Assembly (NCBI GenBank): GCA_030591685.1
Contig: JAUVAX010000018.1
Location: forward strand, 1-43,223
Direction: 5' to 3'
DNA length: 43,223 bases
From: Pseudobdellovibrionaceae bacterium
GTDB lineage: Bacteria > Bdellovibrionota > Bdellovibrionia > Bdellovibrionales > UBA1609
The position numbers were made by a program, and so were the translations under genes. Below the pieces are notes generated by a model. It had not been told where the DNA came from and did no database searches. It worked only from the letters and a program-made list of their open reading frames with translations. Positions 7,585 through 22,479 of this stretch are shown piece by piece. Each line of letters starts with the position of its first letter. The stretch's first letter is position 1.

Positions 7585-8997
7585 ATGCGCGCTCAGAATA
7601 AACTGGCAACTCTGGTATTATTAGTATCATTTTTTGGCTCAATATCTTATGCCAAGATTATTGATATTAATTATGTATTTAATAATACTAAAATTTCTAA
7701 TATCAAAAAAGCAGAGATTTTGGTTTCAGCCGGGGAGCAATTGCTCGTACCTGCTGGCATTACATATGCTGATAGTTTGTTTAACACAGCTCTTTTAAAA
7801 GACCCCGGAAATATAAAGGCAAATTTCTACCGACGAATGTTGGCCCCCATTATGGTTTTCAAGGGTTACCATAGAAGAGTCAAAAACTTAACGTATTCTA
7901 AGGGTAGCAAACGTGACATTGAATCCTACAATAGCGCCTTAGAGGGCATGCCTAGTGAAGGTGGGTTTAAAGATTTTCTAAATGGCGAAAGCTGGCAAAA
8001 ACCCTTTAAAAACGTATCTGACATACAAAAACTAATGGATGATGCTGTTCGTAAATTTGATTTATTACGTTTATTTTTAAAGAAAACTTCAATAAAGCAA
8101 GCTACTATACCGATTGTTCATTTTTTAAATATTCATGAAGGGGAGAGTAATAAATCTTTTAACGATGTCGCAAAGCTTTGTAATGTTACCCAACTAAATA
8201 TTGGTAAATTTGAGATCGCCCCTTGTAAGTATATTTCGGTCGAGAAAAAAGTAGTTGATAACACAGATTTACAAGGCCTTAAGGGGATTACTGCCGGAAT
8301 GGAGATTCTATTTGCCATTTCATCCTCTTATAATTTAAATGGAGCACTTGATGTCGCCTCTGAAAATAGCAAAAGAGAAGACCAGCAGAAAGAAAAACTT
8401 ACAGATAAGGAACTTTTTAAAATCCTAAGAAATAATAAAAAATTCGGTAAACTCAGAAACCGCTCACATTTAGCGGTAGTACCTGACTTAGCTGGTGATA
8501 TTTATGCCGCTGTTAAATGGTACCGCAAATTAGACTCTAAATTATGTAAAAGAGACCACCGTGTTTACTACGGCAGTAATAAAGAATATTCTTGGACTGA
8601 TGATGTCAGTGTTGAACGCCCCAATAATCTACTTGATGGTGTTTGCGCGTCACCAAGAGATGAAAATGAGTGGCTTGACGTCTCTAAAAAAGTCGAGCTC
8701 GCCCTAAGTGGTTCATTTTTTATTTCAGAAGTTAAGCGCATTGACTATAGCCCAAAGAGTACTGTTGGCATGGTAAGAAAAAAGACTTATAAATTTAATG
8801 TCTTAGCTCCATTCTTTAACCCAGTAAACGATATTTCGGTGTTACTACCCTCTAAATTTGATAAGTGCGGAGATGCTGATAACATTGGTGATGACCCTAC
8901 ACTTTTAGGCATTTTCCCTGACGGTGATGCTCAAGACTATTCTGATTTTGAGAATAATAGTTATTATGATCAGCCAAAATCAACATCGTGCAAATAG
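7585..8997 (+). CDS. Secreted hypothetical protein (470 aa)
   Basis: Signal peptide ending SISYA; long ORF; scattered Cys. Confidence 0.8.
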   Translation: MRAQNKLATLVLLVSFFGSISYAKIIDINYVFNNTKISNIKKAEILVSAGEQLLVPAGITYADSLFNTALLKDPGNIKANFYRRMLAPIMVFKGYHRRVKNLTYSKGSKRDIESYNSALEGMPSEGGFKDFLNGESWQKPFKNVSDIQKLMDDAVRKFDLLRLFLKKTSIKQATIPIVHFLNIHEGESNKSFNDVAKLCNVTQLNIGKFEIAPCKYISVEKKVVDNTDLQGLKGITAGMEILFAISSSYNLNGALDVASENSKREDQQKEKLTDKELFKILRNNKKFGKLRNRSHLAVVPDLAGDIYAAVKWYRKLDSKLCKRDHRVYYGSNKEYSWTDDVSVERPNNLLDGVCASPRDENEWLDVSKKVELALSGSFFISEVKRIDYSPKSTVGMVRKKTYKFNVLAPFFNPVNDISVLLPSKFDKCGDADNIGDDPTLLGIFPDGDAQDYSDFENNSYYDQPKSTSCK

Positions 8998-9008
8998 GCT
9001 CTTAAGTC

Positions 9009-9392
9009 ATGAGCCGCGAGAACAATATATACGATCATGCGAAGAAGGTGCTATTTGTCGCCTTCTTTGCCTTCTCAATAAGTGCTTACTCTAAGGCCAC
9101 TGAAAATGTTTATAATTTTAAATTAAAAACCTGCAACAGTAAATCTTGTTATTTGCTAAAAACAAGTAAGGCTTCACGAGGTTTTTTAGATTCAATTTAT
9201 GTGTTAAATCGCTTACAGCTTTTGATTAAAAATAATAAAACTAAAAAAGTACAAACTGTTAATGCCAGCTCAGGGATTTATGACCCTGAATTAGACATGG
9301 TCCACATGCAGGCCCCTACCGACTGGAGCCCTGCTCAGCCCAGTGAGCTCATTGTTCACTTAAAAACTGGGGTTATTGAAGAGTTTAAATAA
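9009..9392 (+). CDS. Secreted hypothetical protein (127 aa)
   Basis: Hydrophobic N-terminus; begins 11 bp after the upstream gene. Confidence 0.7.
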   Translation: MSRENNIYDHAKKVLFVAFFAFSISAYSKATENVYNFKLKTCNSKSCYLLKTSKASRGFLDSIYVLNRLQLLIKNNKTKKVQTVNASSGIYDPELDMVHMQAPTDWSPAQPSELIVHLKTGVIEEFK

Positions 9393-9610
9393 TACTTTGC
9401 TTACCCTTTCATGTAATCCATAACGGAAACAAGGCTTAGTATTGAGGCTATGACATAGCCTACGATGCTGATGATAGGCATGTCCCCAGGCACTTTTGAA
9501 AGTGCTACAACAAGTGAGCTGCTTAAAATTAAGCTCCCAATAACAAGGCCTAAAAACAACAAATCTGACGAAGGGTTGAGGCTTCGCCTTAAGTCTTTGA
9601 TTTATTTTAT
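9357..9610. repeat. Diverged direct repeat, copy 1 (partner 10812-11064)
   Basis: Manual alignment covers the last 36 bp of the 127-aa gene, an 8-bp spacer and about 210 bp of the ubiB 3' end. Confidence 0.95.
9401..9601 (-). pseudogene. Orphan 3' fragment (66 codons plus stop) of the UbiB/ABC1 kinase gene
   Basis: IKDLRRSLNPSSDLLFLGLVIGSLILSSSLVVALSKVPGDMPIISIVGYVIASILSLVSVMDYMKG differs at 9/66 aa from the intact gene; preceded by an in-frame stop. Confidence 0.92.
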
Positions 9611-9758
9611 TAGGTGCCGACGACTCTGAATTATTGAATTAAAGTAACAATTTATGTAATTTTGACACTCTATATAGTGGAGAACAAAAATACCTCAACT
9701 TCAAATCCAAATTTTGGTATGGACTTTAAAAGTTTAATATAAATATAGGGTCCAAGAC

Positions 9759-10802
9759 ATGAAAAAATTAATAATTATATTTATCAGTTTTTTTTCAGTA
9801 AATATGTTAGCTAATGAAATAAATCCTCACACTGACATGTCACGATTAACTAATGAAACACTGCTACTAACAGTTGTTAAGGACATACATATTCCACCGC
9901 CATTGATGAGCTTATACAGTAGTCTCATTGCCTTTAGTAAGGGTAACATTATTAACAGTAGATTCTTAAGTGGCTTTGTTAGCTCATGGAGTAAAGATCA
10001 ACGTTGTGAGATCTTTATAAACACTCCCATGCTGACCCCTGGTGTTATTAAGAAAGGTACGGTTTATAAAGTCGTGATGGAGTATGGCGGCCCTTCTCAC
10101 ATCGTATTTAATGCAAAAACTGTTTCAAATAATAAGCAGGGGAGCACACTAGGCCGATTTGCAATTTTGTGCTCAAAAGGTGATATCGAAAACGCCAACT
10201 CCTGGTATACAGAGCATGTTAAAATCAAGTCTTATTACATTTATGAATTTATTAATGAGTTCGGCGGAAGCCTTATTTTATCCGGGAAAACCCTTAATAA
10301 GGACCAGTTTAACAGGTATTCAGATACAGCCGAAAATAATACCCAAGCTTACCCCGAATCAACCTCCCCTATGATTAGTGAGATCATTTTCAAAAAACGC
10401 TTACTTCTTCCTATACAGGAAGCCATCGGATTTAATCGCATTCATAATAACAAATATTTTTTTAGAAAGGGCTTGTATCTCGAGCGTGGTCCGGCCAAAG
10501 CTTATTATGATTTACCCCACGAACAAGAAGATATAATGTGTGCCATTATATTTAAGCGTAGTTTAGAAAAAGAATTAATTATTAAAAGTGGTTTTTCATT
10601 TAAACCCAAGCGTTCTTATATTATAGGAAGTTCTATTTTACTAGAAGGGGGCGGTTACGATGAGGAACCAAACTCAAAAATACAATACATTCGTTGTGAT
10701 AACTTAAGACGCGATGCCGGTAAAGGATTTCAAATGACCAAAGACCTTGTTACTCAGGCTTTTGGGGTGGACAGGGTGATTGTTCGAGGACCGGTCAAAT
10801 AA
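9759..10802 (+). CDS. Secreted hypothetical protein (347 aa), cargo between the direct repeats
   Basis: MKKLIIIFISFFSVNMLA signal peptide; no family recognised. Confidence 0.8.
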   Translation: MKKLIIIFISFFSVNMLANEINPHTDMSRLTNETLLLTVVKDIHIPPPLMSLYSSLIAFSKGNIINSRFLSGFVSSWSKDQRCEIFINTPMLTPGVIKKGTVYKVVMEYGGPSHIVFNAKTVSNNKQGSTLGRFAILCSKGDIENANSWYTEHVKIKSYYIYEFINEFGGSLILSGKTLNKDQFNRYSDTAENNTQAYPESTSPMISEIIFKKRLLLPIQEAIGFNRIHNNKYFFRKGLYLERGPAKAYYDLPHEQEDIMCAIIFKRSLEKELIIKSGFSFKPKRSYIIGSSILLEGGGYDEEPNSKIQYIRCDNLRRDAGKGFQMTKDLVTQAFGVDRVIVRGPVK

Positions 10803-10811
10803 AGTCGTAAA

Positions 10812-11064
10812 CACTTAAAACTGGGGCTATTGAAGAGTTTAAATAATACTTTGCTTACCTTTTAATGTAATCGATCACAGCGACGAGGCTTAACACCGAT
10901 GCAATAGCATAGCCCACAATACTTAAGATAGGCATATCCCCAGGTACTTTTGAAAGTGCTACTACAAGTGAGCTACTTAAAATCAAACTCCCAATAACAA
11001 GGCCCAAAAACAGTAAGCTTGATGAGTGGTTTAAGCTGCGCCTTAAGTCTTTTATTTCTTTAAT
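10812..11064. repeat. Diverged direct repeat, copy 2 (contains the functional ubiB 3' end)
   Basis: Aligns to 9357-9610, with 40 mismatches in the 201-nt ubiB-coding part (manual count). Confidence 0.95.
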
Positions 11065-12519
11065 ACTAATACTCATTGAATGATCAGGGCTGTTCCATTT
11101 ACGAAGCACTTGTTTAAGTTGCCGAGGCATACCGACAAGTAAATTATTTGTGTCTTTAGCTAAATAAGACAGGTCCTTTAAGAGTTTAGTTTTATCATAC
11201 TTAGCCCCAGCCACCTCTTTGGCAAAATCAAGGGCAAACTCTAGGGCGTCGAAATCTTTTTTTACCATTTTACCGAGGGCCTCGACGTTGACTACGGACT
11301 TAAAAAACATCACAAGCTCTGCTGGGAGCATAAGGTTATTGCGAGCCGCAATAGAGGTGGTCTGCATTAATAACCGGCCCGTATTAATATTATCTAGCGT
11401 TAGGCCATAAAAAGGCGCCACGAGGTCCCTTATTTGTCGTGATAAAATATCTACATCTACCGGGCCATTATAAGGTGATAGCTCTATGTATTCATAAGCA
11501 AAGCGTTCATAGTTTTCTGTTGCTAGGGCTATAAACATATTTGAAATTGAGTTTCTGGTTTTTGGGTTCAAGCGACCCACCTGCCCAAAATCAATAAGCC
11601 CTAATTGCCCCTCAGGGGTTACAAATAAATTACCCGGGTGCATATCCCCATGAAACAACCCGTCGGTAAAAACCATTTTAAAATAGCACTTTACCGCTGT
11701 GCTAATGAGTTTGTCTTTGTTGACATCTTTTTGTTCAAGGGCTCGTTTATTTGAAAGCGGCAGGCCCTCGAGCTGCTCCATAACTAAAACCTGCTCACCC
11801 GAGTGAGAGAGAAATACACTTGGTATTTTTATACCCTCAAAATCTTTAAAGTTTTTTTGAAATCTTTTTATATTATTGGCTTCAACGATAAAGTTTGTTT
11901 CAAGCTTTAGAGATTTAAAAAATTCATCGACAACACCTACGGGGTTATAAATATTAGCATCAGGCACGTATGCCGTAATAAGCTCTGCTAGTGCGTAGAG
12001 AACATTTAAGTCCTCAAAAATGATCTTTCTAATACCTGGCCTCTGTACTTTTACCACCACCGGCTCGCCAGTTCTTAAGGTCGCCTTATAAACCTGAGCA
12101 ATGCTGGCGGCCCCTATGGGGTCAGAGTTAAAGCTTGCAAAAATTTCTTCAAGGTCATCACCGTAGTGGTCCTCAACGACCTTTCTCATGAGTTTAAAAT
12201 CAACGGTGGTTACTTGATCTTGGAGTTTTTTAAATTCGTCACAAAACTCTATGGGTACTAAATCGGGTCGACCGGCCAAGAGTTGCCCTAGTTTTACAAA
12301 TGTAGGGCCCAGCTCCTCAAAGGCCATGCGTAGTCGCTCGGGGGTGGAGTGTTTGTTAACATCAATTTTAGTAAATTTATCGAGCACATATCGACCCATC
12401 GTGGCTCGCTCGGCGATGTTCTCAAAACCATGCCTGGCAAACACAGACAGGATCGTTTTAAAGCGTCCCACGCTTTTTATGGTGCTAAATGCTGACAGGT
12501 TTTTAGAGGCACGAATCAT
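10855..12519 (-). CDS. ubiB: UbiB/AarF/ABC1 atypical kinase family protein
   Basis: ELGPTFVKLGQ, AASIAQVY, VVVKVQRP, FHGDMHPGN and IDFG motifs; C-terminal TM helices. Confidence 0.9.
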   Translation of the reverse strand: MIRASKNLSAFSTIKSVGRFKTILSVFARHGFENIAERATMGRYVLDKFTKIDVNKHSTPERLRMAFEELGPTFVKLGQLLAGRPDLVPIEFCDEFKKLQDQVTTVDFKLMRKVVEDHYGDDLEEIFASFNSDPIGAASIAQVYKATLRTGEPVVVKVQRPGIRKIIFEDLNVLYALAELITAYVPDANIYNPVGVVDEFFKSLKLETNFIVEANNIKRFQKNFKDFEGIKIPSVFLSHSGEQVLVMEQLEGLPLSNKRALEQKDVNKDKLISTAVKCYFKMVFTDGLFHGDMHPGNLFVTPEGQLGLIDFGQVGRLNPKTRNSISNMFIALATENYERFAYEYIELSPYNGPVDVDILSRQIRDLVAPFYGLTLDNINTGRLLMQTTSIAARNNLMLPAELVMFFKSVVNVEALGKMVKKDFDALEFALDFAKEVAGAKYDKTKLLKDLSYLAKDTNNLLVGMPRQLKQVLRKWNSPDHSMSISIKEIKDLRRSLNHSSSLLFLGLVIGSLILSSSLVVALSKVPGDMPILSIVGYAIASVLSLVAVIDYIKR

Positions 12520-12526
12520 ACTTAAC

Positions 12527-12553
12527 TTATCGGTTTTTTTAAAAAAATTTTAA
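12527..12553 (-). promoter_or_regulatory. Putative sigma28 promoter; transcript probably leaderless
   Basis: Minus strand TAAA-N14-ACCGATAA ends 7 nt before the ATG; no Shine-Dalgarno. Confidence 0.55.
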
Positions 12554-12712
12554 AATTTGCGCCTCTAAAGCAACGACCCCGACTAGGCTTCAGGCCTGAC
12601 GATAAAAAATGAAAGCCCCGCAACGTCAGGCGACTCAATTGTTATAAAAAACAACTACAGCGGATTATGGTTTTATTTTTATTTTTTTTATAAGTCTAAA
12701 AGCTTTGCTTAT

Positions 12713-13252
12713 TTAAAAATCATCCCAATAGCGATGGTTTGAGTCCCATTCGCTATCATTATGCCTACCGGGGTTTTCACATATTGAAAAAGAGACCGGA
12801 GTCCATTTTTTATAGGTGTTTCTCCTTAATCGCGATGTAGATCGAGACCTTTTAATCATTAGCTTTTGATAGGCCAAAATTAAGTCCCCGCGAGTTGTCA
12901 TACGAAGGGTTACTTTTTTATCATCAGAACAAATGGGGCACTTAACAAGGCCCGAAAGGTCCCCTTGGTTCGTCTCGAGCTCTAAGAGCTCGTGAGGGCC
13001 TATGTTTTTGATCACATTGTTCGAGGGTGAGGGTTGAAAAATAAAACTAGGCTCCCAGTACTGTACGTACCTAAAGTGATTTCGAGCCGCATACAGCCCT
13101 GAGGAGCAGTGCCATAACTCACCCTCTTGTAGTGATTCACTTGTTGGCATTAGGGCCTCTTTGTACTGCCTTTCAAAAAGTTCGAAAGCCATAGGACTTG
13201 ATGCAAAAGTATTTAAGTTTAACGAGAATGCGATAAGTAAAATAATGTTCAT
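12713..13252 (-). CDS. Secreted hypothetical protein (179 aa)
   Basis: Signal-like N-terminus; G9 tract in RBS position. Confidence 0.7.
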   Translation of the reverse strand: MNIILLIAFSLNLNTFASSPMAFELFERQYKEALMPTSESLQEGELWHCSSGLYAARNHFRYVQYWEPSFIFQPSPSNNVIKNIGPHELLELETNQGDLSGLVKCPICSDDKKVTLRMTTRGDLILAYQKLMIKRSRSTSRLRRNTYKKWTPVSFSICENPGRHNDSEWDSNHRYWDDF

Positions 13253-13397
13253 AATCCCCCCCCCGGAGAGTATCTAAGGGGGAAACTACAAAAAAAAGGC
13301 CCTTAACTCAAGGCCCGGCGCCAAAATGGGTCTTTTTGCTTTGATTTTCTACATTCACCCCTGCCGCAGCAAGGGCTTAAGGCCATGCAACAACAAA

Positions 13398-13433
13398 CTT
13401 ACCCTTGACTTACACGTTTCTTACCGTTAACTT
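13398..13433 (+). promoter_or_regulatory. lexA sigma70-type promoter with three CTTAC direct repeats
   Basis: TTGACT(13405)-17 nt-TAACTT; CTTAC at 13398, 13409 and 13420. Confidence 0.6.
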
Positions 13434-13452
13434 GAAAAAAGGAGTCTCTTTT

Positions 13453-14160
13453 ATGAAAAGAAAGCCAAAACCGCTCACACCAAAAGAAAAGTCAGTTCTT
13501 GAGTTTATCGAGCACTATTTTGTTACAAATGGTTACGCGCCATCATTTACTGAAATTAAAGAACATTTTGGTTTTGCCTCTTTCAACTCTGTACAACGCT
13601 ACTTAAAACAACTGCAGGGCAAAAATTATATCCATATGCCTGGCGGTAATCAAAAAAGAGCGATCACCTTACTTGTAGCTTCAAACTTTTTTAAAAGCCA
13701 TTTAAAAGAGACTTCTAGCGATGTTGCTTACGCCCAACCCTTAGGCTCGAAAGAGGCTCACCCTGAAAAATCTGAGTCTCTTTCGATACCCTTTTTAGGG
13801 TCTGTAGCTGCTGGGGCGCCCTTAGAGGCCACTTTTGATAATGAAACCTTAGATGTCCCCGCCTCACTCGTTAAGTACCCTAGTAAAACCTTTGCCCTTA
13901 GTGTTGAGGGTGACTCTATGATCGAAGACGGAATTTTAAACGGTGATATTTTACTCGCCTCCGAGCAAAGTGTTGCCAACAATGGCGACATTGTCATTGC
14001 TGTTGTTGAAAACGAAGCCACTGTTAAGCGCCTTTACTATAAAAAGGGCGAAAAAATGCTCGAGCTGCGACCAGCCAACTCAAAAATGAAAACCCTTTAC
14101 TACGAAGCCGAGCAAGTCACAATTAAGGGCCTTGTCACTGGGCTTTTAAGGCAGTTTTAG
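13453..14160 (+). CDS. lexA: LexA repressor (start probably ATG 13453)
   Basis: N-terminal wHTH (GYAPSFTEI), VAAG cleavage site, GDSM catalytic Ser, ATVKR catalytic Lys; AAGGAG RBS. Confidence 0.93.
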   Translation: MKRKPKPLTPKEKSVLEFIEHYFVTNGYAPSFTEIKEHFGFASFNSVQRYLKQLQGKNYIHMPGGNQKRAITLLVASNFFKSHLKETSSDVAYAQPLGSKEAHPEKSESLSIPFLGSVAAGAPLEATFDNETLDVPASLVKYPSKTFALSVEGDSMIEDGILNGDILLASEQSVANNGDIVIAVVENEATVKRLYYKKGEKMLELRPANSKMKTLYYEAEQVTIKGLVTGLLRQF

Positions 14161-14266
14161 TAAAAAACTCTTTCTCATAGTCTCTTTTCATTCCTTGCGA
14201 AAAAAGCCCCCTTCTTATAAACTCTATTACATATTTTTTAATATAACTCTTAAGGACTCCATTTAA

Positions 14267-15085
14267 GTGAAACTCTCTGTTTATAAAATGCACGGCACGG
14301 GTAATGATTTTTTAATTTTTGATGCCCGCTCTGACCAAAACACACAAGACCTGTTAACTCACCTGAAGGCAAAGTCTAGGCCTGAGTTTGTTAAGAGCAT
14401 TTGCCACCGAAACTTCGGCATAGGGGCTGACGGCTTTATTTTTATTGAAAACTCTAAGGACTGTGATTTTAAATGGGATTTTTATAATGCCGACGGCTCT
14501 AGTGCCGAAATGTGTGGCAATGCGGCCAGGTGCGTGACTCTTTGGGCTTATACTTTTAAGTTAACCGGTAAAAGTTTATGTTTTGAAACTCTTTCGGGTA
14601 TCATTAAAGGGTCTGTCGAGTCTGACAGTAAAGTTATTATCGACATGACTTGCCCCACACAAAAAAACTTTGAGCAAAATATTGAGATTAACAACAAAAG
14701 TTACCAATATGATTTTATAAACTCAGGGGTCCCCCATGTGGTCATCACCTTACCTAGTATTGAGCCCTCACCGGACCTTATAAGTATTTGTCGCAGCCTT
14801 CGGGCGCATGAAACATTTAAACCTGAAGGTGCAAATATCACTCTAGTAAAAGAGGTTAAAGCGGGAGTCATTGAGTCGGTCAGTTTTGAGCGCGGGGTTG
14901 AGGGCTTCACCCTAGCTTGTGGTACCGGTGCTGTCGCTGCCGCCATTAGCTATCAGCACACTCACTCAGGGCTCAGTACAGTTCAGGTAAATGTACCTGG
15001 CGGAGGGCTCAGTGTTGACCTAAGCCACTCACACCCAACTCTTATTGGCCCCGCAAAATTTATAATGAAAGCTCAACTCATATAA
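14267..15085 (+). CDS. dapF: Diaminopimelate epimerase
   Basis: KMHGTGNDF, GIGADG, NADGSSAEMCGNAARC, GVPH and ERGV..TLACGTGA motifs. Confidence 0.95.
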   Translation: MKLSVYKMHGTGNDFLIFDARSDQNTQDLLTHLKAKSRPEFVKSICHRNFGIGADGFIFIENSKDCDFKWDFYNADGSSAEMCGNAARCVTLWAYTFKLTGKSLCFETLSGIIKGSVESDSKVIIDMTCPTQKNFEQNIEINNKSYQYDFINSGVPHVVITLPSIEPSPDLISICRSLRAHETFKPEGANITLVKEVKAGVIESVSFERGVEGFTLACGTGAVAAAISYQHTHSGLSTVQVNVPGGGLSVDLSHSHPTLIGPAKFIMKAQLI

Positions 15086-15096
15086 GGATTTAAAAC

Positions 15097-16206
15097 ATGT
15101 CTACAGAAATTATGCACGAACTCACCGTTATTGAAAAAACACAAGAGACCTCTGATACAGCCACTTTTACGCTACAAATCCCTGCCGATAAGAAAACTCT
15201 TTTTTACTATAAGCCCGGGCAGTTTTTAACTGTCTTTATGACCATTGACAATAAATCTGTAGCCCGTAGCTACTCGTTTTCGTCATGCCCTATGGGCGAC
15301 CCCCACTTAAGCATAACGGTTAAAAGAGTCCCCGGGGGGATTGGGTCTAATTACTTGCTCGACCATGTACATAGTGGCGGCAAGCTGCTTGTGTCCCCTC
15401 CGGCGGGTCATTTTTTTAATATGGGGCAATCAGCTGAAGACGAGCTTGAGTACTATTTATTTGCCGCCGGCAGTGGTGTCACCCCGCTGTTTTCAGTTAT
15501 TAAATGGACCTTGCCGAGCTTACCAAAGCATAAAATTCATTTAATTTATTCTAATAAAACTCACGACTCTACAATTTTTTTAAATTCACTCAAGGACCTT
15601 GAAAAAAAATACCCCCAACTTAAAGTCACTTATTTTTACTCTCAACTTGAAGAGCCCCATCAAAGACTAACGGCTGATAACCTTAAACAAATACTCTCAG
15701 AGGCCTTTAGTACCCCTACAAAAAAATCATTTTACCTTTGTGGCCCCGAGGCCTATATGCAAACCATCGAAAACGAATTAAACACACACGATGTTGACCC
15801 TGCCTGGGTCCATAAAGAGAGCTTTTTTGCCCCCGAGGGTCAAGGCGAGGGTTTTAAAAGTAAGGCCCAAGAAAAGGGCATTTACATTGAGACGTTACCG
15901 GACGGTTTTAAACCCGAGGCCTGCGAGCAAATCACTGCCGACATTGATGGCGAGACTATCGTTGTTGACCTTAAAAATGAAACCGAAGAATCTATACTTG
16001 AGACCCTACTCGATGCCGGGCACACACCGCCTTTTTCATGTATGAGCGGCTCTTGCCAGGTCTGTATGTGTACACTTATTGAAGGCGAAGTCTTTCAAGA
16101 AAACGAGGGCGTACTTACTCAAGAGGATATTGATGATAAAAAGTTTCTCGCCTGCCAGGCCAAGGCTGTCTCTAAAAAATTAAAAATAGTTTTTGACGAG
16201 GATTAG
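15097..16206 (+). CDS. FAD/NAD-binding oxidoreductase with C-terminal 2Fe-2S ferredoxin (PaaE-like)
   Basis: RSYS, AAGSGVTP, YLCGP and C-x4-C-x2-C..C motifs. Confidence 0.88.
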   Translation: MSTEIMHELTVIEKTQETSDTATFTLQIPADKKTLFYYKPGQFLTVFMTIDNKSVARSYSFSSCPMGDPHLSITVKRVPGGIGSNYLLDHVHSGGKLLVSPPAGHFFNMGQSAEDELEYYLFAAGSGVTPLFSVIKWTLPSLPKHKIHLIYSNKTHDSTIFLNSLKDLEKKYPQLKVTYFYSQLEEPHQRLTADNLKQILSEAFSTPTKKSFYLCGPEAYMQTIENELNTHDVDPAWVHKESFFAPEGQGEGFKSKAQEKGIYIETLPDGFKPEACEQITADIDGETIVVDLKNETEESILETLLDAGHTPPFSCMSGSCQVCMCTLIEGEVFQENEGVLTQEDIDDKKFLACQAKAVSKKLKIVFDED

Positions 16207-16215
16207 ATTTGTTTT

Positions 16216-16692
16216 TTAAAGCCTCTGGTTGTCCTCAGTATCCGCGTGCTCCCATATACAATGGTGCTCTTCTTCGCAACGTTTACAGTGATGTGAGTTT
16301 AATATATGCCCCCTGACTAAGCTCACGCTCCCCAGAGTAACAAGTATAAACTCCCAGTGATGCCCTAAAAAATTATGGGCAAAAATTGTACCTAGAACAA
16401 CAAGGCCTAAACCCACACCTAGCCAAATCAGCGGCTGAAACTGCCCATGAACTTTAAACCCCGAATATACAGCAAAAGCCGTTGCCGGCAGTAAAAACGC
16501 CATTAAAGCAAAGTGAGTATTGTCCTCACTCAAGCCTAAAAAACTCGCCACAGCCGGAAAGGCGATAATCACTACTGGTAATAAAATACAGTGAACAATG
16601 CAAAGGCTTGATACCAAAACACCAAGCTTATCCCAAAACCTTATTGATTTTTTGGGGCTAATTATAGAAGGATTGTTTTTATCTAAACCCAT
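16216..16692 (-). CDS. MerC-domain membrane protein with His/Cys-rich tail (start 16692 or 16704)
   Basis: DKLG..SSLCIVHC motif, four TM segments, HHCKRCEEEHHC tail. Confidence 0.8.
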   Translation of the reverse strand: MGLDKNNPSIISPKKSIRFWDKLGVLVSSLCIVHCILLPVVIIAFPAVASFLGLSEDNTHFALMAFLLPATAFAVYSGFKVHGQFQPLIWLGVGLGLVVLGTIFAHNFLGHHWEFILVTLGSVSLVRGHILNSHHCKRCEEEHHCIWEHADTEDNQRL

Positions 16693-16749
16693 GAAACCTC
16701 TCATAAGTTACGCATACTGTCGTAAGTCATGGGCCGGGTCAACTTTTCT

Positions 16750-17436
16750 TCACCGTATGTTTTGAAAAAACTTTTTGAGCTGCATTATAATAGATTGAGG
16801 GATCTCGTGCCCCCCCTTAAACCCGGCCCAGTGCCCATGCAGGCCGCTTTCTGAAAGCATTTCATTTAAATCCTCGGCCCCACTAAACGGTAGTACTGCG
16901 TCTTGCTGACCATGACTTTGAAAAAATACCATGCCTTCGCAACTGGGGGCGCTTTTTCTCCATCCGGCCTCATCTATAAAAGTGCCGGAGAGTATAACAA
17001 GCGCCTCTGGCTTATCAGGTGCTGATAAGGTGAGCTCTGTTGTCATCATGGCCCCTTGACTAAAACCACCCACAATTAAAGTGTCATACTCTTCTCGTAA
17101 TTTTTCGTATAAGGGTCGAAGTTTTTTTTGAGCCCCATCAAGCCCCTCAGGCCTGCTAGATTTGAAATCTCTAAACTCACCCCTTTGCATAGCACGCTCC
17201 ATGGCCATGATATCTATATGAAACCAGGCTCTCCCCCCCATGGGGAGCTGTATAGCTGCATTTGGAAAGTACCAATCCATCTGTAAGCCTGAGCCTATAG
17301 CATCAGCCAATGGGGCAAGGTCATTATTATCAGCGCCAAAGCCATGTAAAATTAGGCAAGCCGCTTTAGCTTTATTTTTAGATTTTTTAACAACTGTTTG
17401 TAATCCACAGATATTCTCAACCACAACAACACCCAC
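16750..17436 (-). CDS. Phospholipase/carboxylesterase (alpha/beta hydrolase)
   Basis: LHGFGA, GFSQG nucleophile elbow, HGQQD and GGHEI motifs. Confidence 0.88.
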   Translation of the reverse strand: MGVVVVENICGLQTVVKKSKNKAKAACLILHGFGADNNDLAPLADAIGSGLQMDWYFPNAAIQLPMGGRAWFHIDIMAMERAMQRGEFRDFKSSRPEGLDGAQKKLRPLYEKLREEYDTLIVGGFSQGAMMTTELTLSAPDKPEALVILSGTFIDEAGWRKSAPSCEGMVFFQSHGQQDAVLPFSGAEDLNEMLSESGLHGHWAGFKGGHEIPQSIIMQLKKFFQNIR

Positions 17437-17521
17437 CTTTTAATTAAGGCTATAATTTTATTAAACAAATGTAACGCAAAACAACTAGCCCACATACGCC
17501 CATTAAGTCTACTATCATCTT

Positions 17522-17986
17522 ATGAAAAAGGTTTTATTTGTTTGTTTAGGTAATATTTGTCGCTCTCCGGCGGCCGAAGCTATATTTACTCAGCTCATTG
17601 AAAAAAACAACCTCACAGGCCAGGTCAGCTGTGACTCTGCGGGCACTTCACATATTCATGAAGGCACCCCCTCTGATCGCCGCATGACTGAACATGCGAA
17701 ACTGCGTAATTATGATATCACCAGCACCTCTAGACACTTTAACCCCCAGAGTGATTTTGAAACCTTTGACCTTATAATTACCATGGATAACCGCAATCAC
17801 AGCGACCTGTTTAATGTTGAGTTCTCTGAGGCGTATCACCATAAAATAAAAAAAATGACCGACTATTGCCAAAACCACGACGTCACACAAGTACCGGACC
17901 CCTATATAGGCGGCCCCCAGGGCTTCGAATTAGTTTTAAATATCCTCGAAGACGCTTGTGGTGAGCTTATAAAAACCTTTCGTTAA
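17522..17986 (+). CDS. Low-molecular-weight protein tyrosine phosphatase
   Basis: VLFVCLGNICRSP P-loop, DSAGT and PDPY motifs. Confidence 0.95.
   Translation: MKKVLFVCLGNICRSPAAEAIFTQLIEKNNLTGQVSCDSAGTSHIHEGTPSDRRMTEHAKLRNYDITSTSRHFNPQSDFETFDLIITMDNRNHSDLFNVEFSEAYHHKIKKMTDYCQNHDVTQVPDPYIGGPQGFELVLNILEDACGELIKTFR
17864..17986. repeat. 123-bp direct repeat, copy 1 (LMW-PTP 3' end; partner 20938-21060)
   Basis: Ungapped alignment with 8 mismatches. Confidence 0.95.
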
Positions 17987-18084
17987 GTGTCGCAATAGAA
18001 ACTTGAATTCAGCCTGGCACCTGAATGAAAAGTGGTTTTAAATACATGATGATCTGTTTGTTCATCTGAATTTGGGAATAGCGT

Positions 18085-18828
18085 ATGCTGTTAAAAGTTA
18101 TTTTTGGGTTATTGTTACTTTGTATTGATGCGTTTGCTGGTGAGCAATGTTTAGTTGGTGACCATTGGGTTGAATCTCATCATCGCCGGGCTTATGTAAG
18201 GTATGATGCTGTTCCCGTGAGGTCCACTACAGTGAACGGTCATTGCCGCAAGACCCCCCGTGGCTACGAAACATGGCATAGTAGGTTATCAAATGGTCGC
18301 CCAGGAATATGGGGCTATACGAGAGAGAAATCTAAAAAATGGTCCGTAGAAGAAACAGAACGATTTTTATCGGCAATTTCTGTTTTGCCAGATAAATTGG
18401 CTCACCTTAAGGGCGTATTTGTTTATCGAATGAAAGCGTCGAAAGATTTAGCAAACCCTGCAACCAGCAACGGAAGAGACATTGTATTGTACGACTTGGC
18501 CTTTCAGCATAAGGATTCATTGTCACAGATTATATCCCATGAATTATCTCACATCGTCTACAGGAAAACAGGGGTAGTTGATTTAGACAGGTTTAAGCGT
18601 TTGGCCGGCTGGAAACAGCTTAGCAAAGGCTCTAGCGTTTATACAGCGACCAAGAGGAAGATATTTATTCAGGAGGATAGTAGAGCCTCAATACCTGAGG
18701 ACTTCTCGAATCATTTAGAGCATTACCTATTTAAGAATGATTCACTGAAAGCTGAATCTCCATATGCATATAAATGGATTCAAAAAGAATTTGGTCTGAA
18801 ATTTAAATTCCAAGAGGAGGGGAAATGA
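18085..18828 (+). CDS. Secreted putative zinc metallopeptidase
   Basis: Signal peptide; HELSH (HEXXH) motif with a downstream EDFSNH. Confidence 0.7.
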   Translation: MLLKVIFGLLLLCIDAFAGEQCLVGDHWVESHHRRAYVRYDAVPVRSTTVNGHCRKTPRGYETWHSRLSNGRPGIWGYTREKSKKWSVEETERFLSAISVLPDKLAHLKGVFVYRMKASKDLANPATSNGRDIVLYDLAFQHKDSLSQIISHELSHIVYRKTGVVDLDRFKRLAGWKQLSKGSSVYTATKRKIFIQEDSRASIPEDFSNHLEHYLFKNDSLKAESPYAYKWIQKEFGLKFKFQEEGK

Positions 18829-19496
18829 GAATTGTTTCAAGTGTCTTGATAAGTTTTTTTGTTGCAGGGTGCGTAACATTATTCAATAAAAGTAAATCAG
18901 AGTTCACTGTTGATGAGCTTTTAAAGCTAAAAATTAGCGTTGATACTAGTGAAGTCATCAAGAAACGATTGGGCAACCCTCACGAGAAAATATTTTACTC
19001 TAGTCAGGTTAAGGGAGGGGAGAAATCAGAGAAGTGGATTTATATTTTCGAGAAGACGCCTAAATTATGGTTATTTTTCAAGGGGGGCATATTGGAGCAC
19101 GCATCCTTGGGAGTATGGGATAGAGATAATGTTTCCTCTGTAGGAGGTTTATTGTCTCAGTTAGAAGGTCAGACTTGGTCTATAGTAAAGGAACCAGTAA
19201 GAAATCCTCATTCTATGCCTAATATGTGTATGCTGGTGAGTGAAAGACTTGGCATCAATGTAAAAGTTAACAGTATGATGAGGAGAGTGGATGAAATAAA
19301 TCTATGGAACCCTAGTATTAAAAGGAAAATAAAGTGGTTTGATGATTCGGTACCAGAATTTTGCATTGCCAACCACTGCTCAAATGTGACTGACCCTAAT
19401 GCGTGGGAACATAATCACTGTGAATGGCTAGAGGAAATAGTGGCTAGACAAACAGTGGGTGTAGGCAAAAATCCGGCAACCAGGGTGTCGAATTAA
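18825..19496 (+). CDS. Lipoprotein, translationally coupled to the peptidase
   Basis: VAGC lipobox; ATGA overlap; EVIKKRLGNP resembles a BamE/SmpA-like motif. Confidence 0.75.
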   Translation: MRIVSSVLISFFVAGCVTLFNKSKSEFTVDELLKLKISVDTSEVIKKRLGNPHEKIFYSSQVKGGEKSEKWIYIFEKTPKLWLFFKGGILEHASLGVWDRDNVSSVGGLLSQLEGQTWSIVKEPVRNPHSMPNMCMLVSERLGINVKVNSMMRRVDEINLWNPSIKRKIKWFDDSVPEFCIANHCSNVTDPNAWEHNHCEWLEEIVARQTVGVGKNPATRVSN

Positions 19497-19665
19497 AAAC
19501 TTTTATTGGCCTAAATGTGATAAATTCTTTTATCGTTATAGTTTTCCCAGGCACGATTAACATTGGAGTGTCCCATTCAAATAGAGATGTTTTAGATGAG
19601 AGGCCTCTGGAGAGCATCAGATCAAAAAAACATTGTAAGCATGTGATACTATTAAATAAATTAGC

Positions 19666-19747
19666 TATTATCCCTATATAGTATAATTACATAAAAACCT
19701 TTTGATTTAAGATACTTACATGTTATTATCCCTATACGGCATAATAA
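19666..19747. promoter_or_regulatory. Two operator-like repeats before the HTH-MNT gene
   Basis: TATTATCCCTATA at 19666 and 19724; the second copy forms the palindrome TTATTATCCC-N5-GGCATAATAA. Confidence 0.65.
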
Positions 19748-19760
19748 TGAATGGGAGATT

Positions 19761-20321
19761 TTGATGAGTGAAGATCCAAGACAACCTAGCCGCCCTGCTA
19801 AGTTAACGGCTATAGGGGCAGCGCTTAAGGAAGAGCGCATGAGCCTTGGGATGACTCAAACTCAAGTCGCTGATCAGTTTGAAATAAGCTTAAAGGCTTT
19901 ACGTAATCTGGAGCAAGGAAAGGGGAGCGTTAGTTTTGCAAAAATTTTAAAAATACTAGCGTTATTTGGAAAAGAACTTCGAGTTGGTGATTTATTAATG
20001 TCTCCACGAAAGCGTTCTAAAACTCGACCTCGGCGTGAAAATATTTTGGAGATTCTGCAGCTAATTAAACCTATTTTAGGTAAAAAATTTAATATTCAGA
20101 GTCTAGCCTTGTTTGGCAGCTGTGCAAGAGACAAAGCTAAAAATAATTCCGACATTGACATTGCTGTGCAGTTTTCGAAGAAACCAAGCTTTACTCTCTT
20201 AGGCAAATTAACAGTTTTTTTAGAAACTCTTTTTGAGGGTAATAAAGTAGATTTGGTAGAGTTTGATAAAATGCTACCAGAGGTGCATAAAACGGCTCAA
20301 GAGGACTTTATTTATGTCTAA
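19761..20321 (+). CDS. XRE-HTH fused to a minimal nucleotidyltransferase (MntA-type antitoxin)
   Basis: LGMTQTQVA..LRNLEQG HTH; GS-X10-DID motif; VDLV. Confidence 0.88.
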   Translation: MMSEDPRQPSRPAKLTAIGAALKEERMSLGMTQTQVADQFEISLKALRNLEQGKGSVSFAKILKILALFGKELRVGDLLMSPRKRSKTRPRRENILEILQLIKPILGKKFNIQSLALFGSCARDKAKNNSDIDIAVQFSKKPSFTLLGKLTVFLETLFEGNKVDLVEFDKMLPEVHKTAQEDFIYV

Positions 20322-20691
20322 AAAATATAATAATAGTGCTTTTTCTTTAAAAGAAATGATTGGTGCCTGTGTAAAAATTCAAGAATATATATTGAACACT
20401 ACAGAAGAGGAATTCTTAAAAAAAAGAGAGTCCTTTGATGCTATATGTATGCAGTTTTCACATCTAGGAGAGCAAGTAAGCCGTCTAGAATCATCTTCAG
20501 ACAGAATAATTCAACATTATCCCGACGAAGTTAATTGGCACGGACTAAATGGTTTGAGAAACCGAATTGATCATGCCTATTTTGATGTGGATGCAGAAAT
20601 GATATGGAGTTTTGCAAATGATGAAGTTAAAGATCTTGAAGGTGAATTGCGAAGGATTTTAAAAAAGCGATTTGGGCAAAGTTACCCTTAG
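20314..20691 (+). CDS. HepT/DUF86 HEPN ribonuclease toxin (start probably ATG 20314)
   Basis: R-X4-H-X-Y motif (RNRIDHAY), LGE, and overlap with the MNT gene. Confidence 0.9.
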   Translation: MSKKYNNSAFSLKEMIGACVKIQEYILNTTEEEFLKKRESFDAICMQFSHLGEQVSRLESSSDRIIQHYPDEVNWHGLNGLRNRIDHAYFDVDAEMIWSFANDEVKDLEGELRRILKKRFGQSYP

Positions 20692-20937
20692 GTTTTGTTT
20701 GTTTGGTATAAACAGCGTTATATATAATGAAGTTTTGTGATAAAAGTAACCGTGGATCATGAAATACGGTAAACGGGGACTGAGCCTCAATCTCTGTCTT
20801 TTTTTAAAAAACAACAACCCCAATGATCTCTATCGGAGACTTTGATCTGCATGTAATCTATCGAAATCAATACAACATACCAGAAAAGTGCCTTAGTATA
20901 TTAAGTATGACTAAAATTACTATAAGCGTATTACTAA

Positions 20938-21060
20938 TATTGCAAAAATCACGACGTCACAGAAGTACCGGACCCCTATATAGGTGGCCCCCAGGGCTTC
21001 GAATTAGTTTTAAATATCCTCGAAGACGCCTGTGGTGAGCTTATAACAACATTTCGTTAG
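20938..21060 (+). pseudogene. Orphan 3' fragment of the LMW-PTP gene (direct repeat copy 2)
   Basis: YCKNHDVTEVPDPYIGGPQGFELVLNILEDACGELITTFR* differs at 3 aa from the intact gene. Confidence 0.93.
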
Positions 21061-21208
21061 ATTTGCTCCTAAACTGTATGGTAGAGACGGTGACATCGCT
21101 CTAACTCTTTGAACTCACGGCTTCAAATTTTACGATTACTACAATTCACCACAGTTCCAGGGGCTTTATTGGTCTTAAGTATAGCATCTGCCGTATAAGC
21201 ACAAACAC

Positions 21209-21278
21209 TTTACTAAGCCTAACCGTTAGTAAACATCCCTTTACTACTGGACTTCCTTATTAAACAGTGCTTTACTAA
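21209..21278. promoter_or_regulatory. 31-bp-period operator array upstream of fic
   Basis: TTTACTAA-N9-TTAGTAAA (21209), TTTACTAC-N9-TTATTAAA (21240) and half-site TTTACTAA (21271). Confidence 0.7.
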
Positions 21279-21282
21279 GCGT

Positions 21283-22443
21283 ATGGGACAACCAACAGGT
21301 AAATACGTTATAAATACTACAGCCGGAGAAGAGGTTAAGGCTTTTGTCCCCAACTCTCTCCCACCCATTCCAAGGATAGAGGCTGGTGAAGATATACAAA
21401 ATTTAATTCGACAATGTGAGATCTCGTTAAGTGAATTGAAGATTGCCACCAGCATGATCCCCGACAAGGGTTTGTTCGCTTACACCTTTGTAAGGAAAGA
21501 GGCTATTTTATCTTCCCAAATTGAAAACATTCAAGCAACACTTACCGATTTATTCAGCTTTGAATCCGAAATTATTGAAATTGAAAACTCGGATGAAGTA
21601 CAAGAGGTTTGCAATTATATTGATGCCCTTAAATATGCTCAAAGACAAATTAATTTATCAAAAGGCCTTCCTATTTCTAAAAGACTCTTCCAAGAAATAC
21701 ATAAGCGAATTATGAAAGGCGTTCGTGGGTCACAAAAAAAACCTGGTGAATTTCGCCAATCACAAAATTGGGTCGGCGGCACAAGGCCTGGCAATGCTCA
21801 ATACGTACCTCCGCCCCCCTCTGAGATGAACAAATGCTTAGACCAATTAGAAAAATACATTCACCAGAGCAATCAAGATCTACATCCTTTAGTAAAAATT
21901 GGCTTAATACATGTCCAATTTGAATCTATCCATCCTTTTTTAGATGGAAATGGTCGCCTAGGCCGTCTACTTATTGTTCTTTTATTGGAAAAATGGGGGC
22001 TATCAACAGCACTATCCTTCTACCCAAGTTTACATTTCAAGCGGCACCGAAATAAATATTATGACTTACTAACCGGCGTGAGGATATCAGGCGACTGGGA
22101 GGCTTGGAATCGTTTTTTTCTTGAAGCTATTAATATTTCTGCACAAGAAGCTACACTTTTAGCGCAAAATATTTTTGAGCTCCAACAAAAATTTAGAATT
22201 AAATTAATAAATCAAAAAGATATTTCTATGCCAACGATCAGACTTTTCGAGCTCCTACCAAGTCATCCTATTTTAAACATGAACCGAGTGGTGGAAATTC
22301 TTAACGTAACAAAACCCACAGCGAACAAGGCTCTAACTCAATTGCAAAACGCAAATGTTTTGCGAGAAACTACTTCGGGTCAGCGTAACAGGGTTTTTGT
22401 ATATAAAAACTACCTTGACCTCCTAACTAAAGATACAGGGTAG
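21283..22443 (+). CDS. Fic-family AMPylase with N-terminal inhibitory motif and C-terminal HTH-like region
   Basis: HPFLDGNGRLGR catalytic motif; SSQIEN matches (S/T)xxxE(G/N); C-terminal LNVTKPTANKALTQL. Confidence 0.92.
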   Translation: MGQPTGKYVINTTAGEEVKAFVPNSLPPIPRIEAGEDIQNLIRQCEISLSELKIATSMIPDKGLFAYTFVRKEAILSSQIENIQATLTDLFSFESEIIEIENSDEVQEVCNYIDALKYAQRQINLSKGLPISKRLFQEIHKRIMKGVRGSQKKPGEFRQSQNWVGGTRPGNAQYVPPPPSEMNKCLDQLEKYIHQSNQDLHPLVKIGLIHVQFESIHPFLDGNGRLGRLLIVLLLEKWGLSTALSFYPSLHFKRHRNKYYDLLTGVRISGDWEAWNRFFLEAINISAQEATLLAQNIFELQQKFRIKLINQKDISMPTIRLFELLPSHPILNMNRVVEILNVTKPTANKALTQLQNANVLRETTSGQRNRVFVYKNYLDLLTKDTG

Positions 22444-22447
22444 TTTG

Positions 22448-22479
22448 GTGCCTGTCTGAATTCGAATTCAGACAGGCAC
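22448..22479. repeat. Perfect 32-bp palindrome between convergent genes (REP-like element or terminator)
   Basis: GTGCCTGTCTGAATTC|GAATTCAGACAGGCAC. Confidence 0.9.

Follow-up and report, generated by a model that had tools for sequence, protein, structure and literature searches.

How does a gene come to be followed by a second, diverged copy of its own 3' end, with unrelated cargo between the two and no integrase nearby? The question is raised twice by a 43,223-nucleotide stretch of DNA from a Pseudobdellovibrionaceae bacterium (contig JAUVAX010000018.1 of assembly GCA_030591685.1), hereafter the window, meaning this whole stretch, in which the 3' ends of ubiB and of a gene for a low-molecular-weight (LMW) phosphotyrosine phosphatase both recur in this manner. 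The same architecture is found elsewhere in the genome, and in most of the clear instances the joint between cargo and orphan 3' end lies beside a short terminal inverted repeat (TIR) like those that frame the genome's own Y1 HUH transposase genes, the TIRYT family. Judging from sequence, these patterns suggest a one-sided homologous capture, the second joint of which would in this genome often be made by TIRYT beside its repeat, a reading to which we give roughly an even chance. Below, G000 denotes this genome (2.66 Mb in 98 contigs), C-numbers its contigs, L-numbers loci and G-numbers other genomes.

Self-BLAST of the window confirms the two duplications that the first-pass annotation had noticed within 12 kb: a direct repeat of 254 bp at 82.7% identity at ubiB (9357-9610 versus 10812-11064, E 6e-69) and one of 122 bp at 94.3% at the phosphatase gene (17864-17985 versus 20938-21059, E 3e-48). 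Both host genes are indeed intact, with full-length open reading frames (ORFs) and Pfam matches to ABC1 and LMWPc, respectively, and the annotated lack of mobility genes also holds, in that no integrase or transposase family was found among the 41 of the window's 73 ORFs that were scanned (the remainder being overlapping shadow frames) and no tRNA lies in the window. No cargo protein of the window belongs to a restriction-modification family, and two of the cargo ORFs have no family at all. The ubiB locus is laid out as follows:

9009..9392, + strand: ORF Y, 127 aa, without a family match, convergent with ubiB and with its stop inside the left copy
9357..9610: left copy of the duplicated segment, made up of the genuine end of ORF Y and the orphan ubiB 3' end (9401 to about 9603-9610)
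9613..9669: two inward-pointing TIR-like words (GGTGCC.. on +, AGTGTC.. on -) located at the cargo/orphan joint, a loose match without a hairpin
9759..10802, + strand: cargo ORFan, 347 aa, without a family
10812..11064: right copy, made up of the final 11 codons of ORF Y as an orphan and the working ubiB 3' end
10855..12519, - strand: ubiB-like ABC1 kinase gene, intact

The duplicated segment at ubiB thus holds two convergent stops. The two copies show 41 differences across the last 68 codons of ubiB, 29 of them at codon position 3, with 23 synonymous and 10 non-synonymous changes. Such a position-3 share is above the third expected under neutrality (p 1e-6) and also above the 45% at which we put a once-identical copy that decays next to a functional one (p 8e-4), so that the copies look like two alleles, each of which once worked and which differ mostly silently. 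The synonymous bias supports the homology arm from a related lineage that had been proposed for these loci, and a position-3 share above the drift expectation recurs at L045 (p 0.015) and L194 (p 4e-4). The phosphatase copies, compared over 41 codons, differ by five synonymous and three non-synonymous changes, and with 5/8 at position 3 (p 0.26) these are too few to discriminate. The earlier statement that the orphans keep their reading frames stands for the phosphatase, the 41 codons of which contain no stop, and needs one refinement at ubiB, where an in-frame stop occurs right at the 5' border of the orphan; because of this stop, the true joint of the ubiB orphan is placed between about 9603 and 9610. 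The cargo ORFan matches only itself and, weakly, one repeat sequence among 1.84 billion representative sequences. In none of 11 relative loci, each spanning some 2-4 kb, was ORF Y detected next to ubiB.

Across 1990 genes of the genome, an orphan copy of the last 150 nt lies downstream of its own gene in seven (five clear, two short and weak), while the controls yielded one case for 3' ends upstream, two for 5' ends downstream and one for internal segments upstream. The genome-wide check thus adds to ubiB and the phosphatase three further clear cases, on C24 (213 bp, 97.7%), C50 (133 bp, 97.7%) and C84 (135 bp, 95.6%). The five clear cases concern different target genes, enclose 0.7-3 kb of cargo, have copies up to 98% identical and contain identical runs of 32-113 bp in every repeat pair. 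The two remaining candidates, on C73 and C93 (repeats of 54 and 33 bp), were judged too short and lack a TIR core at the joint. The tyrosine recombinases of the genome are a XerC-like, a XerD-like and one 180-aa protein, encoded on contigs C47, C93 and C61, and none of them lies at the five loci; no serine resolvase match was found in the genome and no recombinase family among the cargo ORFs scanned. The claim of a recurring, integrase-free route that preserves the target gene is accordingly upheld across the five loci. The cargo on C50, outside the window, contains a TIRYT gene within a whole TIRtron.

In four of the five clear cases a TIR core stands at the cargo/orphan joint, oriented into the cargo: a strict word 5 nt away on C24 and 6 nt away on C50, and a loose one 2-9 nt away (GGTGCC) at ubiB and 18 nt away on C84. 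With the two short candidates counted in, this becomes 4/7. Of 2257 ordinary gene 3' edges, 60 (2.7%) have the loose core no more than about 20 nt away and 5 have the strict word; relative to this background the enrichment at the joints has a binomial p of 3e-6 for the loose core and 5e-5 for the strict word, and the strict figure is the safer one because the loose core was fixed partly after the joints had been seen.

A search for HUH/RAYT enzymes that might act in trans, suggested by the first-pass annotation, yielded eight full Y1 HUH transposase genes, 65-94% identical to the C50 copy, together with two open-frame fragments of >100 aa. H66, H68, Y127 and N131 (HUH and Y---NP motifs) are invariant in 50 aligned Y1 proteins, and the structure model (pLDDT 93) has E. 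coli TnpA-REP (4ER8) as its best PDB match. The inward-facing repeat RG[GT]GACGGA(G) lies upstream of 8/8 of these genes and 261-271 nt downstream in the 7/7 that are testable. The most enriched dispersed intergenic 9-mers are precisely such Y1-flanking words: GTGACGGAG occurs 26 times versus 0.94 expected and GGGACGGAG 20 versus 0.62. A further enriched word, GTGCCAGGC (13 versus 1.26), flanks the TIRYT gene of L044 and none of the eight in this genome, and the words of the window cassettes are mostly of the GGTGCC/AGTGTC type. Homologues in other phyla are framed by similar ends.

These Y1 genes and repeats match the TIRtron/TIRYT elements of Di Nocera 2013 (PMC3733652) and Quentin 2018 (10.1101/279083; compare Bertels 2017), in which, according to the available portions of the first two papers, inward-facing short repeats frame a Y1 HUH gene and further copies of the repeat stand elsewhere singly, in pairs or in clusters, as in this genome. 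The differences from those portions are that RG[GT]GACGGAG fits the GGGGWSAS consensus loosely, that the middle residue of the Y1 motif is Ala, which does not appear in the Quentin 2018 list, and that the C-terminal helix-turn-helix (HTH) of subclass 2.1 was not detected here, Pfam giving only Y1_Tnp for the C50 protein. A four-sequence profile had no PDB match. The same portions of Di Nocera 2013 and Quentin 2018 report no tie to cargo capture or gene-end duplication, no cleavage site and no function, and the term TIRYT was found in these two papers only within the open-access literature searched. Metagenome scans returned no TIRYT relative. As a separate observation, TIRs often start on the stop codon of a neighbouring gene or a few bases from it (e.g., C47:46481, C49:5173, C50:26235, C71:4507, C73:132400 and 17986 in the window). 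Another short Y1 family, with 17 and 16 matches per genome and its own upstream word ATGACATTGCCC, occurs in G033 and G001 (L140-L159).

Short exact tandem duplications accompany 37/305 strict TIR sites as opposed to 5/694 core-only and 0/32 reversed controls, a count that is inflated by arrays and kin and the offsets of which were read by hand. Fifteen of the 37 have their end inside the motif, nine of these right behind GAC or GACG, and all but one of the fifteen begin 7-11 nt upstream. Lying at about the joint distance, they suggest a candidate TIRYT cleavage footprint; slippage at a nick would leave similar tandem duplications. They are seen on C5, C10, C49, C55 and C62 of this genome and at loci L048 and L056-L128.

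The scars could then arise as follows. A fragment from a close relative would contain a host gene in that relative's allelic form, along with a TIR end and one accessory gene or a few; at one end the relative's gene tail would be swapped in by host recombination, and the other end would be joined non-homologously inside the resident gene, the old tail staying behind the cargo as the orphan. In this genome, the non-homologous joint would mostly be made beside the TIR, most likely by the TIRYT HUH enzyme in trans or in the donor, with a cut about 5-11 nt upstream of the repeat, and the surviving insertions would be those that spare the gene. More tentative, and in our estimation somewhat likelier to fail than to hold, is the specific version in which TIRYT nicks single-stranded DNA, incoming or of the donor, just beyond the TIR by a few bases and joins that end into the host gene tail, host recombination anchoring the other end. 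Joint positions and duplication offsets together predict two places of cutting, one about 7-11 nt ahead of the repeat and one within it, behind GAC. We infer the identity of the donor, which copy is the older, the action of the enzyme and uptake by transformation; the genome encodes ComEC and DprA. A linear and a circular intermediate both give the same scar, and the data separate neither. A parallel might be struck with ISCR elements, wherein a HUH enzyme mobilises adjacent DNA and homologous recombination of the host integrates the circle with duplication of a gene end, although those elements have an IS91-type enzyme and oriIS/terIS and concern mostly resistance regions.

The scar class is itself already known: it corresponds to the insertion with long target duplication (Furuta, Abe, Kobayashi 2010, PMC2853133), characterised in the available part of that paper by an insert of <20 kb, a direct repeat of >30 bp and no mobile gene, the repeats often spanning a start or stop with survival of the gene, mostly in competent species and with restriction-modification genes, and with double-strand breaks as the proposed cause. 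The window cases (254 bp with 1.2 kb of insert and 122 bp with 2.95 kb) fall within these sizes and hold no integrase or transposase, the C50 case holding a TIRYT gene; they differ from that description in a cargo of toxin-antitoxin and unknown genes instead of restriction-modification genes, in copies that are diverged alleles and in the TIR at the joint. Homology-facilitated illegitimate recombination (PMC3240628, PMC5361080) shares the single homologous anchor and single non-homologous joint and is, in the accessible sections, the proposed source of orphan 3' ends in type VI secretion system and Rhs arrays; as described there it classically gives an insertion plus deletion with random or microhomology joints, whereas the duplicated parts here are tails of housekeeping genes, with joints that gather at the end of a transposase element. 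Prophage e14 at icd/icdC (PMC13626634), to go by the excerpt at hand, similarly has the functional end of the gene at one flank and, at the opposite flank, an orphan C-terminal pseudogene that differs from it silently, but it is a 15-kb prophage with site-specific excision and a single fixed target, whereas no integrase lies in or beside the window inserts.

What is new is thus the TIRYT end repeat at the joint; no paper linking TIRYT and a gene-tail-duplicating insertion was found in the open-access literature searched, supplements excluded. Two questions meet here, inasmuch as the sections examined give long-target-duplication insertions no established mechanism and TIRYT no substrate or role. 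If the reading is true, any conserved gene tail would be a landing site, with the gene repaired by the donor allele, TIRtrons would gain a function and long-target-duplication insertions a mechanism; if the enzyme link fails, these are ordinary recombination scars of the known class.

A number of results weigh against a role of TIRYT in the capture. Within this genome, the ubiB word is of the loose GGTGCC type, its core chosen partly post hoc, and no TIRYT gene flanked by GGTGCC ends was found; the phosphatase cargo/orphan joint has no TIR core within 25 nt, a word pair standing at the stop of the gene instead; loose inward doublets are barely enriched (113 inward versus 91 outward); and strict TIRs adjoin an orphan in only 2/36 testable instances. 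A random-position control fell only inside known orphans and so gave no clean background. When one common search rule was applied to other genomes and loci, TIRYT-centred windows were not enriched (2/29, 0/5 and 0/20, the first count having been 3/29 before the case at L046 was dropped as a self-copy of TIRYT). G318 has six cases in 5/22 motif-centred windows versus one in 20 other tiles (p 0.19), with the G000 geometry in only 2/7; G304 has none in 18 windows; and G003, a relative without a Y1 match, has two genuine cases in 20 tiles (0.4 Mb), at nirS and at a lytic transglycosylase gene, neither with a TIR core within 40 nt of the cargo/orphan joint nor with a recombinase family in its cargo. 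These counts imply that the scar architecture is common in the group and that a resident TIRYT is unnecessary for it. Finally, neither an empty site nor a donor allele was found among the relatives, which include no congener: this genome is the only one of its genus, and a DNA comparison with 30 relatives gave matches in parts of ubiB and lexA only. A metagenome scan gave one ubiB match (27%) and a viral scan none.

The two TIRYT-centred cases that were kept are comM tails in Omnitrophota records (L045 and L047); in L047 it is the intact comM end that is followed by a related TIRYT unit (75% identical proteins), in L045 the orphan, a placement that agrees with the orphan being the displaced resident end. 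The targets in G318 include rarA-, pgi- and permease-like genes, and one further case there has a TIR at both joints in the opposite orientation. The other Y1 family gave no case in 20 windows of G033/G001. Three cases in 20 windows of G008 were set aside, two being IS630 and ISL3 transposase gene ends and one having insertion sequence (IS) debris as cargo. At L177:11083-14469 of G008, a 145-bp duplication at 90% identity extends over two convergent gene ends and has an IS-like end exactly at one joint, the scar being of the same kind with the end of a DDE element where a TIR would stand.

Host functions alone might produce such scars, by homology-facilitated illegitimate recombination or by a single crossover of a re-circularised linear fragment, with the TIRs as bystanders or as agents of a later trimming of the orphan. 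The two G003 insertions without a Y1 match, the lack of a TIR at most G318 joints and at the phosphatase joint, and the competence genes all favour this, as do, in the part of the E. coli study available, re-circularised fragments that give gene-end duplications of 109-950 bp (PMC3240628). We consider it the main rival, though less likely than not: the strict TIRs stand 5 and 6 nt from two of the five joints in equal orientation, for which the strict enrichment p applies, and these distances come near the start offsets of the TIR-linked duplications, although later trimming by TIRYT would explain that proximity as well. The first-pass annotation had instead envisaged small non-autonomous circles, comprising cargo and a homology arm, that leave one lineage and enter the chromosome of a different one through a single crossover. 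Its homology arm and its recurrence are retained; the circle as vehicle is improbable, given that linear one-sided capture gives the same scar and that no back-joint of a circle appears among the X1 contig matches listed (X1 being a sequencing run that may be the source sample). One circle would simply explain the ubiB segment, with both joints in genes, and likewise L132 and L101 of G318, in which the duplicated segment also spans two convergent gene ends; the identical runs in all five pairs would suit a crossover, and one X1 contig joins 17911 to 20986, omitting the phosphatase cargo, with the switch inside a 44-bp identical run. Such a contig is equally expected from a short-k graph (the Logan assembly presumably used k = 31), and the read depth of the cargo in X1 is similar to that of its flanks; the contig may be a graph artefact or a genuine empty allele, and nothing is drawn from it. 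Circles would also leave the formation of the first joint unexplained, and the route is combinable with one-sided capture aided by TIRYT. Contig C69, considered as a circle joined at a TIR, was rejected as a collapsed second exeA-like copy; it remains among the five loose matches of the TIR-versus-orphan count in G000. There, at L139 (C69 with the ends of C47 and C48), a pilin/gspE/secretin block apparently lies between identical exeA-like copies collapsed in assembly.

Decayed integrase-bearing islands with a replacement gene end, like e14 at icd, would give the same type of scar, as the accessible account of icd/icdC indicates (PMC13626634), and the 180-aa tyrosine recombinase could be counted in their favour; they are very improbable, since the five targets differ, the cargo measures 0.7-3 kb, the identity of the copies reaches 98%, no recombinase family was found in the scanned cargo ORFs and no serine resolvase matched. 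Hardly better placed is a target duplication that was identical when it arose and then drifted or had another allele later replace its working copy, with which the phosphatase pair alone is compatible but from which ubiB, L045 and L194 depart by exceeding the position-3 share of drift; this too we regard as very unlikely. A strain-mixture misassembly might be suspected in a 98-contig assembly, the more so as a further ubiB allele, the third and a diverged one, occurs in X1 (at 9305-9461 and at 10965-11332, among the matches listed) and may represent a donor lineage. It is barely credible in view of the 127-bp overlaps between contigs, which exceed every identical run in the five pairs, of a separate short-k X1 contig that spans 8359-10002 without differences and so covers the left ubiB copy, orphan and joint, and of the recurrence of the pattern in other genomes. 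In runs X2 and X3 the organism is not present.

The remaining features of the window lie at the phosphatase locus and downstream of it:

17522..17986, + strand: LMW phosphotyrosine phosphatase gene, intact, Pfam LMWPc match; duplicated part 17864-17985
17986..18021: two TIR-like words that face inward (AGTGTC.. on +, GGTGCCAGGC on -), the pair beginning on the final base of the stop codon
18085..18828, + strand: cargo ORF of 247 aa that contains an HExxH word and falls in a hypothetical family of Bdellovibrionota, zinc metallopeptidase being a weak lead only
18825..19496, + strand: cargo ORF, 223 aa, without a family match
19761..20691, + strand: cargo toxin-antitoxin pair, an HTH-nucleotidyltransferase (MNT-like) and a HepT-like RNase
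20775..20786, + strand: TIR-like word GGGGACTGAGCC, about 160 nt ahead of the orphan and oriented towards it
20938..21060, + strand: orphan phosphatase 3' end, 41 codons, open frame with its own stop
21089..22479, + strand: downstream block, its Fic gene (21283-22443) flanked by a GGTGAC word and, at 22447-22479, a GGTGCC-type palindrome (z -8.9)

The phosphatase is present in 70/108 genomes of the family (best identity 58%), and apart from one split gene no second C-terminal fragment of it was found there at E<=1e-8. The TIR-like pairs at 9613 and 17986 fold no better than shuffled sequences. The Fic block is probably another TIR-bounded insert. Lastly, an exact 56-bp tandem repeat at the end of the contig (43112-43223) overlaps the start of contig C46 and is probably an assembly edge.

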